Assembly: GCF_048403405.1 (NCBI RefSeq)
Contig: NZ_CP183129.1
Strand: one strand, 5' to 3'
Length of the DNA: 64,000 bases
From: Escherichia coli
GTDB lineage: Bacteria; Pseudomonadota; Gammaproteobacteria; Enterobacterales; Enterobacteriaceae
Positions within the stretch are counted from its first letter, which is position 1. Each line of letters opens with the position of its first letter. Positions 16,137 to 19,100 of the stretch are shown here, in pieces. The position numbers were made by a program.

Positions 16137-19100
16137 TTAATTCGTAAAACGTGCTACCGATCACATTAAGAAATCAGCGCTTATTTTTTCGCTCCCGGGC
16201 ATTACGCAATGAGCAGCGAACTCAGGCATACATCAAGAATAGAGAGGGATTGCAGTTTGCAGCAATCCCTCTTTGCAGACCTTTAATCCGTTGACTATAG
16301 GCGCTAACATAGCGCCTCATTTTTTTGCGGGTGATGATATGCGTGTGTTACTGGCACCGATGGAGGGAGTGCTTGACTCTCTGGTGCGTGAATTGCTGAC
16401 CGAAGTTAACGACTACGATCTGTGCATCACCGAGTTTGTCCGCGTGGTGGATCAACTGCTGCCAATAAAAGTCTTTCATCGCATTTGCCCTGAGCTACAA
16501 AATGCCAGCCGGACACCTTCCGGTACGCTGGTGCGCGTGCAGTTGTTAGGTCAGTTCCCACAATGGCTGGCAGAGAACGCCGCCCGTGCGGTGGAGTTAG
16601 GTTCCTGGGGCGTGGATCTCAATTGCGGCTGCCCGTCGAAAACGGTTAACGGTAGCGGCGGTGGGGCGACGTTACTCAAAGATCCTGAACTCATCTACCA
16701 GGGGGCAAAAGCGATGCGTGAAGCTGTACCAGCGCATTTGCCCGTCAGCGTAAAAGTGCGTCTGGGCTGGGACAGCGGTGAGAAGAAATTTGAAATCGCC
16801 GACGCGGTGCAACAGGCTGGCGCTACGGAGCTGGTGGTGCATGGGCGGACGAAAGAGCAGGGTTACCGCGCGGAGCATATTGACTGGCAGGCGATTGGCG
16901 ATATTCGCCAGCGGCTGAATATTCCGGTGATTGCCAACGGTGAAATCTGGGACTGGCAGAGCGCGCAACAATGCATGGCGATCAGCGGCTGCGACGCAGT
17001 GATGATTGGTCGCGGGGCGCTCAATATTCCCAACCTGAGCCGTGTGGTAAAATATAACGAACCGCGAATGCCGTGGCCGGAGGTGGTTGCTTTGCTGCAA
17101 AAATATACCCGTCTGGAAAAGCAGGGCGATACCGGGTTATATCACGTAGCGCGGATTAAACAGTGGTTGAGTTATTTGCGTAAAGAATACGATGAAGCAA
17201 CGGAATTATTTCAGCATGTTCGGGTGTTGAATAATTCCCATGATATTGCAAGGGCTATTCAGGCAATTGATATCGAGAAACTCTAAGAAACCATAGTGAT
17301 GTTTTTTGACAATGTGTTAGCTCTTTATCAATAGGCCGCACGGTTGTTTGGTGGCGTCAAAATCGCCGAGGCGTTCCCTGAAGGCCGGGGCAGCCCACAT
17401 GGATGTGGGCTGAGGGCGCGTTTTACAGGGATGTTACCTCGCGCCCGACCCGGTAGCCGTAAGGGATAAGCCGAGGGCACCGCGCAGCGGCGATTTTGTT
17501 CGCCAGAGCCCGGGGGTGCAGGGGGCGGCGGCGATTGGTCGCCCCCTGCGCGCTCCTTGCGCCAGTGATTATATGAAGCAATGCACATGACAGGAGCGCA
17601 ACAGGATGAGAGACTGAAATATTCTCGTTATTTTCGGATCTGATGACATTAATTAATTTTAAAATATCATCTTAAATACGCCAGTCACCACCAGTAGCCC
17701 AATCAGGAAAATAATCAATACAGCCCAGAGTATAATTTTCATTGGCGTTCCTTTATTTGTGAGTGCTGAATAAGTATAGGAAAAAACGAAGCCCTTTGCC
17801 GCTATCCATAAACGATTAAGATAAATCGGAAGATATCATTCACTTAGTGTATATTTTTCTGGATATGTCGTTTTATTGCCACTGATGTATTGCCACGCGA
17901 AACTAAAAAATATATCGCAACACACGGTAATCTCCGCGCACCTTTTCTTACCTGATTATTCCCCCATGAATCGTGATTTTTTTTATCCAGCCATCGCCTG
18001 TTTTCCGCTGTTACTGATGCTGACCGGGTGTGCGCCTATGCATGAAACCCGCCAGGCGTTAAGCCAGCAAACGCCCGCTGCACAAGTTGACACCGCATTA
18101 CCCACGGCGCTGAAAAATGGTTGGCCAGACAGCCAATGGTGGCTGGAGTATCACGATAATCAACTCACTTCCTTAATTAATAACGCACTACAGAGCGCAC
18201 CGGATATGCAGGTGGCTGAACAGCGCATTCAGCTGGCTGAAGCCCAGGCGAAGGCAATTGCCACTCAGGATGGTCCGCAGATCGACTTTTCTGCGGATAT
18301 GGAGCGGCAAAAAATGTCTGCAGAAGGGTTAATGGGGCCGTTTGCTCTGAACGATCCTGCCGCAGGTACGACCGGTCCGTGGTACACCAACGGTACTTTT
18401 GGCTTAACGGCGGGCTGGCATCTCGATATCTGGGGAAAGAATCGGGCGGAGGTTACTGCTCGCCTGGGTACGGTTAAAGCACGGGCGGCGGAACGCGAGC
18501 AAACCCGCCAATTGCTGGCTGGCAGCGTAGCCCGTCTGTACTGGGAGTGGCAAACCCAGGCGGCGTTAAACACTGTCTTACAGCAAATCGAAAAAGAGCA
18601 GAACACCATTATCGCCACCGATCGCCAGCTATATCAGAACGGGATTACTTCTTCAGTTGAAGGTGTGGAAACCGATATTAATGCCAGCAAAACCCGGCAG
18701 CAGCTCAACGATGTCGCGGGGAAAATGAAAATTATTGAGGCACGGTTAAGCGCACTTACAAATCACCAGACAAAGGCATTGAAGCTTAATCCGGTCGCGT
18801 TGCCGAAAGTGGCAAGCCAGCTTCCTGATGAACTGGGGTACTCCTTACTGGCCCGGCGGGCAGATTTGCAGGCGGCGCACTGGTACGTTGAGTCATCGTT
18901 AAGCACTATTGATGCGGCAAAAGCGGCATTTTATCCTGACATCAACCTGATGGCCTTCCTGCAACAGGATGCGTTGCACTTAAGCGATCTGTTCCGTCAT
19001 TCCGCGCAGCAAATGGGCGTTACGGCAGGCCTGACGCTACCCATTTTCGATAGTGGTCGTCTTAACGCCAACCTCGATATCGCAAAAGCCGAAAGCAACT

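Follow-up and report, generated by a model that had tools for sequence, protein, structure and literature searches.

The dusC promoter of Escherichia coli lies within a terminator-like hairpin

Hairpins upstream of dusC and their closest counterparts

Intrinsic terminators of Enterobacteria have a GC-rich stem of 8-10 bp, a short loop and a tract of 7-8 U that begins 0-2 nt after the stem, and in attenuators and other leaders (pyrBI, trp, riboswitches) a terminator hairpin with its U-tract stands directly upstream of the coding region. Sigma-70 promoters with a GC-rich discriminator, such as rrnB P1, in which the discriminator is GCGCCACC, and fis/dusB-fis, are under stringent or growth-rate control, and the promoters of pyrBI, codBA and upp are UTP-sensitive and subject to reiterative transcription (Turnbough and co-workers). 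The sequence upstream of dusC in a 64,000-nt stretch of an E. coli genome (the window) shares features with each of these. For dusC itself, Reg-Seq (Ireland et al., 2020, eLife; PMC7567609) described a -35 region, a -10 region and a repressor-like spacer region, which form the experimental basis of the present analysis, while the hairpin, the mhb island and conservation do not appear in its dusC tables and main-text mention.

The genes yohJ and dusC, whose identities follow the RefSeq annotation of a genome with 100% identity, flank a divergent region in E. coli, and in the window, unlike at other intrinsic terminators, no co-oriented gene lies upstream of dusC. Two hairpins are found in this region (Table 1). 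Hairpin 1, AGAGGGATTGC-AGTTTGCA-GCAATCCCTCT at 16243-16272 on the plus strand, has 11 perfect pairs, just as the preliminary description of this sequence had it, and an 8-nt loop. In the 64-kb window only four places have a perfect stem of 11 bp or longer around a loop of 3-10 nt, vs. 0.23 expected from Markov-1 simulations. The second element, AGGCGCTA-ACA-TAGCGCCT at 16299-16317, has eight pairs, five of them G-C, and a 3-nt loop, and is followed directly by CA and seven T, a GC-rich stem-loop with an adjoining U-rich tract as in an intrinsic terminator. The GC stem and T7 run described earlier are both present; the distance to the ATG, given as 13 nt, includes the A of that codon, with 12 nt lying between. 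Terminator-like sites number seven in the 1.5-kb region (1.4 ± 1.5 in shuffled sequences), and RNA from 16239 to 16327 is predicted to fold into exactly the two hairpins (-34.2 kcal/mol, z = -5.7). Neither hairpin looks like chance.

Table 1. Features of the yohJ-dusC region, with positions in the window.
Feature	Position	Strand	Basis and remarks
mhb island (mhbR-mhbT-gtdA-FAH-maiA-mhbM)	Replaces the 86-bp segment 16173..16258		Genome comparison
Minor upstream dusC TSS	16239 (U00096.2 2228507, minus strand)	+	Kim (2012): 21 reads, 100-nt 5' UTR
-35 hexamer TTTAAT	16282..16287	+	Part of the conserved CTTTAATC; 17-bp spacing to the -10; Reg-Seq
5' arm AGGCGCTA of the terminator-like hairpin	16299..16306	+	Doubles as the GC-rich promoter spacer; shares its last two bases with the first two of the -10
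-10 hexamer TAACAT	16305..16310	+	Covers the hairpin loop and the two uppermost stem pairs; Reg-Seq
GC-rich discriminator AGCGCCTC (hairpin 3' arm)	16311..16318	+	Sequence and conservation
Predicted dusC start	16317..16319	+	Deduced from the -10 placed by Reg-Seq, at a distance of 7-9 nt
T7 run	16320..16326	+	U-tract for transcripts coming from upstream; initially transcribed dusC mRNA sequence (predicted)
SD-like GGTGAT and dusC ATG	16330..16341 (ATG 16339-16341)	+	RefSeq start

Promoter elements within the hairpin

Regarding the dusC promoter, the preliminary description saw no room for one between terminator and gene and concluded that transcription of dusC must read through a terminator in its own leader, or that the structure marks the end of a small plus-strand RNA. 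The first part of this is contradicted by Reg-Seq, in which position 0 corresponds to K-12 2230395 and window position 16329, about 10-12 nt downstream of the start implied by the -10 of Reg-Seq itself. In its per-condition calls, mutations lower expression at -48 to -42, labelled -35 (16281-16287, CTTTAAT), and at -26 or -30 to -18, labelled -10 (16303 or 16299 to 16311, with GCTAACATA at 16303-16311); the -10 calls were made in nine conditions, and the -35 and -10 calls recur across nearly all growth conditions (PMC7567609). Mutations that raise expression fall at -35 to -20 or -43 to -16 (16294-16309 or 16286-16313), labelled as a repressor region (PMC7567609). The hexamers that these calls delimit, TTTAAT and TAACAT, stand 17 bp apart, within the 16-18 bp expected of a sigma-70 promoter, and the -10 has the characteristic T1, A2 and T6.

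With three of six and four of six consensus bases, respectively, the hexamers are weak, which counts against the nested promoter; a simple sigma-70 scan, whose 9-of-12 rule they do not reach, missed them and gave no promoter for the region. Three other candidates were rejected: TTGACT at 16291-16296, specific to the window (CTGACC in K-12), lies 8 bp from TAACAT and has no -10 17 bp downstream; CATTTT at 16318-16323, as a -10 for a start at 16329, lacks a -35, and the Reg-Seq calls centre on TAACAT; and the TCAACA-18-CATCAT promoter of Shimada (2014) is a prediction from sequence only.

Conservation was followed across 80 Enterobacterales dusC loci. In 68 of these a -35-like element, 17-18 bp, TAnnAT, 7-8 nt of GC-rich sequence and T5-8 are kept at fixed spacing, and most of them carry CTTTnAnC, likewise at a constant distance. 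Among the 69 sequences on which conservation was scored, T1, A2 and T6 of the -10 are invariant, A5 is conserved in at least 90%, as is the -35-region T that the first sequence has at position 10, and positions 3 and 4 of the -10 vary; such invariance together with variable "loop" positions is the signature of a sigma-70 -10 element, not that of a hairpin loop. In many genera the 5' half of the hairpin decays while the 3' half stays, and in Serratia, Rahnella, Yersinia and Pectobacterium the -10, the discriminator and the T-run are kept and the 5' arm is missing; the discriminator, AGCGCCTC or TGCGCGTC, is conserved even in the first three. The terminator-like hairpin, one of the stems for which covariation across Enterobacterales had been put forward as a check, gave no signal beyond controls (0.099 over 60 distinct sequences vs. 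0.096-0.108 for slid controls), and departures from pairing were mostly broken pairs. Unlike in other intrinsic terminators, the loop and 3' arm at dusC are constrained as a promoter and not as an RNA structure. Published mutagenesis together with this conservation shows that the dusC promoter is positioned inside the hairpin.

The segment 16299-16326 is probably a dual-use junction, an intrinsic terminator that houses the core promoter of dusC. In this arrangement the -35 adjoins the stem on its upstream side, the -10 spans the stem top and loop, and the 3' arm serves as discriminator, with transcription predicted to start at the end of that arm and to run straight into the T-run. The dusC mRNA would then carry a leader of about 20 nt, UUUUUUUGCGGGUGAUGAU-AUG, beginning at or after the 3' arm; as this lacks the 5' arm, the hairpin cannot form and the mRNA cannot terminate itself, which also disposes of the read-through that had been thought obligatory. 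Transcripts arriving on the same strand would carry both arms and may be stopped at the hairpin. These could include those of the mhb operon (O157:H7, Citrobacter, Klebsiella), of rhlE (Buttiauxella) and of weak starts such as 16239, so that the hairpin would insulate dusC, a housekeeping and growth-rate-controlled tRNA-modification gene, from its neighbours, and the terminator role would be largely vestigial in the island-less strain of the window. Mutation of the spacer and 5' arm raises expression in Reg-Seq, which means that the arm costs promoter strength and is kept nevertheless, as expected if it has another function.

An alternative view of the same palindrome is that GGCGCTA-N3-TAGCGCC is the operator of a repressor that occludes the -10, its likeness to a terminator being incidental. 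The inverted repeat is perfect and overlaps the -10, and Reg-Seq classed dusC as (0,1) "simple repression" with one new repressor-type site, 16294-16309 or 16286-16313, the authors themselves reading the spacer signal as a repressor site (PMC7567609). Their tables, however, list no identified transcription factor for it, and a gain of expression would also be expected from a relaxed GC-rich spacer or from an extended -10 (C16302 to T, giving TGnTAACAT). Decay of the 5' half-site with retention of the 3' half is unlike what a symmetric operator predicts, and a canonical U-tract follows the palindrome exactly where upstream operons end. An operator at this site is accordingly considered unlikely.

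As to regulation, the nested promoter resembles those of the rrnB P1 and fis type in its weak hexamers, its 8-nt GC-rich discriminator and its translation-related gene, and differs from them in a spacer of 17 instead of 16 bp and in a U-run as the initially transcribed region. The dusC gene is reported to be down-regulated in a growth-rate-dependent manner along with ribosomal-protein genes and fis (PMC6390033), which fits the GC-rich discriminator, and we infer that dusC is under stringent or growth-rate control through this element. Beyond Reg-Seq and that growth-rate study, the literature on dusC in connection with ppGpp, Hfq or its TSS gave nothing decisive.

Upstream neighbours and the terminator-like hairpin

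Regarding transcription from upstream, about 507 of 5424 E. coli genomes (about 9%), O157:H7 included, have yohJ and dusC separated by a 3-hydroxybenzoate/gentisate (mhb) operon of about 6.2 kb; the operon has this place also in many members of Citrobacter, Klebsiella, Raoultella and Pseudocitrobacter. The 86-bp segment that it replaces is specific to the island-less haplotype. That the island-less sequence might be a recognisable remnant of the island was rejected, since a search of 85 loci, with the mhb island covered in full, for relatives of a 126-bp island-less segment gave homologues in Escherichia only. Sequence shared by genomes with and without the island resumes exactly at the dusC hairpin, where the operon ends. 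In many island carriers the mhbM stop lies 61-64 nt before the dusC ATG, which leaves the hairpin as the only terminator candidate and requires that the promoter overlap it. More widely, mhbM or rhlE ends 61-200 nt upstream in many genera besides about 9% of E. coli genomes; in many relatives the hairpin stands 20-40 nt past the stop of such a co-oriented operon. In Citrobacter and Klebsiella the stem reaches 9-13 bp, with T7-8 directly abutting it and -16 to -19 kcal/mol.

The 5' arm tends to be intact after a co-oriented neighbour (mhbM, rhlE) and is often decayed where the neighbour is divergent. Mean hairpin stability is -12.6 kcal/mol at co-oriented vs. -7.4 kcal/mol at divergent loci (Mann-Whitney p = 1.4e-4, uncorrected for phylogeny, of which the loci are not independent). 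Within genera the difference goes the same way: -16.7 against -7 to -11 among Citrobacter, and -16.6 to -18.5 against -12 to -14 among Klebsiella/Raoultella; in Buttiauxella a hairpin of -16.7 is kept after rhlE. Exceptions are island-less Escherichia, which keep a perfect hairpin, and Leclercia and Enterobacter L054, L060 and L068, in which a co-oriented neighbour is accompanied by a weak hairpin. Hairpin strength would thus tend to track the need for termination, and these comparative data suggest that the element acts as a terminator on transcription coming from upstream. The Term-seq tables for K-12 (Adams, 2021), one of the checks named for the earlier claim, list no 3' end at the dusC site (none from 2230706 to 2236360 on either strand), a weak test as K-12 has no upstream operon. 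The preliminary description, in taking the sequence upstream of dusC for a canonical intrinsic terminator, is partly supported.

The junction is ordinary biology of modest interest. It offers a clean natural case of a terminator/promoter junction, in which the promoter half is kept order-wide and the terminator half tends to persist after a co-oriented gene, and it may be of use for the annotation of promoters and terminators and for the design of compact insulators.

The upstream start, the T-run and the dusC 5' end

Regarding hairpin 1, 4891 of 5426 E. coli genomes carry its segment, which is unannotated, its homologues are found in Escherichia only, partly degraded in the cryptic clades, and its 5' arm is missing from genomes with the mhb island. 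The minor start reported by Kim (2012) lies 4 nt upstream of it. Scanning and inspection found no convincing sigma-70 hexamers upstream of 16239, and Reg-Seq, whose mutagenised stretch covers the -10 region of that start, called no activating region near it; among the Kim (2012) matches listed there is no dusC TSS for K. pneumoniae. An Rfam scan of 15000-18500 (E ≤ 10) returned sub-threshold chance matches only, the best of them, suhB/mmgR over 16260-16332, being rejected because it scored 22 bits where the gathering score is 41.

These data bear on the small plus-strand RNA that had been proposed to end at the T7 run, which would be about 85-88 nt long, from 16239 to about 16326, and be made alongside the nested dusC promoter. 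Its anatomy of hairpin 1 at the 5' end, an A/U-rich linker and a terminator with U7 is the typical layout of an Hfq-dependent sRNA, its two-hairpin fold is very stable, a stem like that of hairpin 1 would rarely arise by chance, 90% of E. coli genomes retain hairpin 1, and the 21 reads at 16239 supply a start. Against it stand the poor promoter hexamers, the lack of a 3' end at the site in the Term-seq tables, of an ncRNA annotation in RefSeq K-12 and of an Rfam family, and the restriction of the segment to island-less Escherichia, with hairpin 1 partly degraded in the cryptic clades and without its 5' arm in island carriers. Such an RNA is judged improbable.

An attenuator or riboregulatory leader, with a distal promoter at 16239 or further up and regulated read-through in a 100-nt leader, is very improbable and largely refuted: the 5' UTR of Kim (2012), the folding of RNA from 16239 into a 5' hairpin and a terminator, and the more distal promoter that Shimada (2014) predicted from sequence would fit it, but the -35 and -10 that determine expression in Reg-Seq lie inside and beside the hairpin, island-bearing E. 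coli and all other genera lack the 86-bp segment on which 16239 and the hairpin 1 5' arm lie, while the proximal promoter is conserved order-wide, the predicted fold is dominated by the terminator, with the linker unpaired and no antiterminator, inspection revealed no plausible leader peptide, and there was no Rfam match, covariation or Term-seq 3' end. In contrast to known attenuators and leaders, dusC shows no conserved upstream TSS, plausible leader peptide, aptamer match or conserved structure and no antiterminator in the predicted fold, and has its own promoter inside the hairpin. A false lead is thereby removed, and the case shows that leader regulation does not follow from a terminator-like motif before a start codon, since such a hairpin can harbour a promoter whose -10 lies in the loop.

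With the dusC promoter nested in the hairpin, the start is predicted just before the T-run. The 5' ends published for dusC in the sources consulted are 16239 and 16329; the latter, from EcoCyc (Raghavan, 2011) and used by Reg-Seq, lies 19 nt after the -10 and downstream of 16326, contrary to a dusC transcript that has to cross the terminator. Together with the lack of a 3' end in the Term-seq tables, this makes up both of the observations that the preliminary description named as refuting it. Neither 5' end falls at the predicted 16317-16319, and both count against the nested promoter. The present analysis also reconciles three discordant published dusC starts. The end at 16329, just past the run, could reflect non-templated extra U, as such reads would map only from GCGGG onward.

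Productive reiterative initiation at start regions with T-tracts has been reported for E. coli (PMC12709180), in a paper whose main text does not mention dusC. With codBA and upp, dusC shares at least five T at the predicted start, a GC-rich discriminator before them and, in E. coli, C-A; unlike pyrBI, codBA and upp, it is not a pyrimidine-supply gene. By analogy with codBA and upp, control of dusC by slippage on the U-tract (reiterative initiation) and/or by UTP-sensitive choice of the start may be entertained as a tentative, rather doubtful possibility, and would, if true, link production of an enzyme that reduces uridine in tRNA with the supply of UTP. The T7 run has its first T 10 nt past the -10; T5-T8 stand at the same offset in all 68 motif-bearing loci, those without a hairpin included. 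The conserved T-run at the predicted dusC start is the one remaining lead and a candidate case for reiterative initiation.

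Layout of the region and the dusC promoter

The region is 100% identical to that of E. coli strain 7/2, has matches in 5424 of 5426 complete genomes and contains, as described, both structures that the preliminary description placed upstream of dusC. Terminator-like sites around the dusC leader number 7 against 1.4 expected, the window holds four perfect hairpins with stems of 11 bp or longer where 0.23 would be expected, and RNA 16239-16327 is predicted to fold into exactly hairpin 1 and the second hairpin (z = -5.7); the two structures are no chance events.

Features of the yohJ-dusC region (window coordinates)
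Feature	Strand	Position	Details
cdd, yohK, yohJ	minus		yohJ start codon at 16100
dusC	plus	ATG at 16339	start as in RefSeq
Hairpin 1		16243-16272	11 perfect pairs, 8-nt loop
Second element		16299-16317	AGGCGCTA-ACA-TAGCGCCT, then CA and T7 at 16320-16326; 12 nt to dusC ATG

The dusC promoter lies within the second element. The mutagenesis of Reg-Seq (Ireland et al., 2020; PMC7567609) covered 160 bp surrounding K-12 position 2230395, the EcoCyc transcription start site (TSS) taken from Raghavan (2011), equivalent to 16329 (window position = 2246724 minus K-12 position, a rule verified on the dusC and yohJ starts). In its per-condition table, regions whose mutation decreases expression are called in almost every condition at -48 to -42 ('-35') and from -26 or -30 to -18 ('-10'), translating to 16281-16287 (CTTTAAT) and 16303-16311 (GCTAACATA) and coinciding exactly with the elements predicted by conservation. 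From this -10 we therefore infer a dusC start at about 16317-16319; the Reg-Seq '0' lies 10-12 nt 3' of this expected start, and the offset accounts for the hexamer positions of -45 and -22. The study further reports mutations within -43 to -16 that increase expression, with a summary-sheet site at -35 to -20, filed by its authors as a repressor site with the factor not named; this site translates to 16294-16309, the 5' arm of the second hairpin.

Two SNPs relative to K-12 at 16291-16296 (CTGACC to TTGACT) create a near-consensus -35 in the promoter spacer, which is probably inert because just 8 bp separate it from the -10. Upstream of its ATG the dusC frame stays open as far as a TTG at 16273, so a purely mechanical ORF call yields 337 aa; over-extension by ORF callers is possible, and the promoter sits within the extension (16273-16338).

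Conservation and termination of upstream transcription

Among 80 dusC loci from across Enterobacterales, GAGGCGCTAmCATAGCGCCTC followed by T6-8 was found directly 5' of dusC in Escherichia, Citrobacter, Salmonella diarizonae, Klebsiella, Raoultella, Kosakonia, Kluyvera, Enterobacter, Leclercia, Buttiauxella and others. The gene order yohJ-mhb-dusC is widespread among these loci; the mhbM stop lies 61-64 nt from the dusC ATG in Citrobacter, Pseudocitrobacter and E. coli E69, and in Buttiauxella the co-oriented rhlE precedes the same hairpin. Since so few nucleotides remain between the upstream gene and dusC, overlap of the hairpin with the promoter of this housekeeping gene is unavoidable. The alignment shows a -35-like CTTTnAnC, 17-18 bp, TAnnAT, a GC-rich block of 7-8 nt (AGCGCCTC or TGCGCGTC) and T5-8. 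The -10 hexamer never departs from T1, A2 and T6, has A5 in at least 90% of sequences and varies at positions 3-4, which is the classic sigma-70 -10 signature and unlike what a hairpin loop should show. The -10, discriminator and T-run are also retained in Serratia, Rahnella, Yersinia and Pectobacterium, where a complementary 5' arm is absent.

Regarding termination, the preliminary description had named covariation and Term-seq as checks. Covariation in the second hairpin scored 0.099, equalled by slid controls, departures being broken, uncompensated pairs, and the Adams (2021) Term-seq tables list no 3' end near the dusC leader. Mean hairpin energy is -12.6 kcal/mol where a co-oriented gene ends just upstream versus -7.4 with a divergent neighbour (p = 1.4e-4, not phylogenetically corrected). 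Within Citrobacter it is -16.7 with mhbM upstream versus -7 to -11.2 without, and within Klebsiella/Raoultella -16.6 to -18.5 versus -12.1 and -14.3; in Kluyvera, where the neighbour is divergent, it is -3 to -4, and for the Buttiauxella hairpin after rhlE it is -16.7. Integrity of the 5' arm thus appears to track the presence of upstream transcription needing termination, with exceptions: the hairpin is still perfect in island-less Escherichia, and is weak at some Leclercia and Enterobacter loci despite a co-oriented neighbour. Together with the Reg-Seq finding that the 5' arm and spacer reduce promoter output (PMC7567609), this relation is consistent with an arm that selection for termination maintains and that decays once the need goes.

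Unrelated GC-rich hairpins with T-rich tails replace the conserved element 30-70 nt 5' of dusC in E. albertii (L010; CCTCCGGCTATGCCGGAGG-ATATTTATTT), Erwinia (L050, L063, L067, L069), Pantoea (L076) and Citrobacter sp. JGM124 (L083), following rhlE wherever the upstream gene was identified, which suggests a repeated need to shield dusC from transcription entering from upstream.

The most likely mechanism is a terminator for upstream transcription combined with a self-starting dusC promoter. RNA polymerase entering from upstream, whether from the mhb operon (where the island is present), from rhlE (in some genera) or from stray starts (in the window strain), would transcribe both arms and the U-tract and terminate. 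Polymerase at TTTAAT/TAACAT would initiate at the base of the 3' arm; its RNA would lack the 5' arm and continue into the gene behind a leader of about 20 nt (ribosome-binding site GGUGAU), for which folding gave no special structure. The earlier terminator assignment is plausible for upstream transcription and does not apply to dusC itself; the element is an ordinary, neatly built terminator-promoter overlap, of which the promoter half has already been mapped experimentally.

GC-rich discriminators of rrn- and fis-type promoters confer negative control by ppGpp/DksA and slow growth, and by analogy the dusC discriminator predicts the same. Consistent with this, dusC is among the growth-rate-dependent down-regulated genes, with ribosomal-protein genes and fis (PMC6390033). 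The U-run at the predicted dusC start site is conserved order-wide, even at loci without the hairpin; reiterative initiation or UTP-sensitive start selection, which we consider unlikely, is worth attention because of this conservation and the odd published 5' end just past the run.

Hairpin 1 and the mhb island

A search of the gathered dusC loci found homologues of hairpin 1 in Escherichia only; 4891 of 5426 E. coli genomes carry it, and in cryptic clades it is partly degraded. A dusC TSS (21 reads, 100-nt UTR) was reported at 16239, 4 nt upstream of hairpin 1 (Kim, 2012). A minor RNA of about 88 nt, from 16239 to the T-run, is a low-probability reading; the preliminary description had proposed the 3' end of a small plus-strand RNA as one alternative. 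Its anatomy would be typical of an sRNA and its sole support is that one TSS; no convincing promoter was found in the sequence upstream, nor any activating region there by Reg-Seq (PMC7567609). The alternative of an attenuator or riboregulatory leader is unsupported, the promoter mapped by Reg-Seq lying inside the hairpin and the leader RNA being predicted to lack the 5' arm.

The match to the window stops at 16172 in approximately 507 of 5424 E. coli genomes, and the mhb island (window 16173-16298; compared at 530-6726 of locus L003, in L009 and at 1420-1500 of L085) is a presence/absence polymorphism, present in about 9% of genomes. In O157:H7 a cluster of about 6.2 kb is found between yohJ and dusC, comprising first a divergent LysR regulator and then, in dusC orientation, mhbT and genes for gentisate 1,2-dioxygenase, a fumarylacetoacetate-hydrolase-family protein, maiA and 3-hydroxybenzoate 6-monooxygenase. 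Depending on haplotype the island substitutes for 16173-16298 or 16173-16258, and common sequence restarts, at the latest, precisely at AGGCGCTAACATAGCGCCT. Nothing beyond the 86 bp at 16173-16258, which contain hairpin 1's 5' arm, is peculiar to strains without the island. In the island-bearing O157:H7 TR01, hairpin 1 is reduced to its 3' arm beside a GC-rich palindromic repeat. Right-hand junctions are of at least three kinds: that of strain E69 is compact and Citrobacter-like, and two O157:H7 forms carry a GC-rich palindromic repeat (cccctcgcccc...ggagagggttagggtgaggg); the O157 2-6-2 form pairs another -35 (TTGTCT) with the same dusC -10.

Flanking observations

The Adams (2021) tables list a 3' end within yohJ (K-12 2230706(+), window 16018), 82 nt into the ORF and directly after a minus-strand hairpin, ATGCCTGCCTGTATGCAGGCAT plus TTTCATT (16018-16045), also flagged by the terminator scan; transcription may end prematurely here, or yohJK may give rise to an ORF-internal RNA. 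A CRP site from Footprint-seq (aaaCGTGCtaccgaTCACAtt, 16147-16167; K-12 2230563) lies over the yohJ promoter's -35 region. Its centre is some 36 nt 5' of the yohJ TSS at 16121 (Kim, 2012), and about 5 bp separate the site from the island junction 16172/16173. The dusC-yohP spacer (17328-17640) contains GC-rich, repeat-like sequence, with spurious proline-rich ORFs on both strands and weak sub-threshold Rfam matches to TwoAYGGAY and AgvB; its repeats are probably REP-type elements. Downstream of dusC, mdtQ is intact in the window strain and a pseudogene in K-12. The three further long perfect hairpins of the window have stems of 12 bp (10167-10193), 13 bp (22791-22824) and 16 bp (58263-58298), the last being AAAGCTGAAATCATTC-GTGT-GAATGATTTCAGCTTT.
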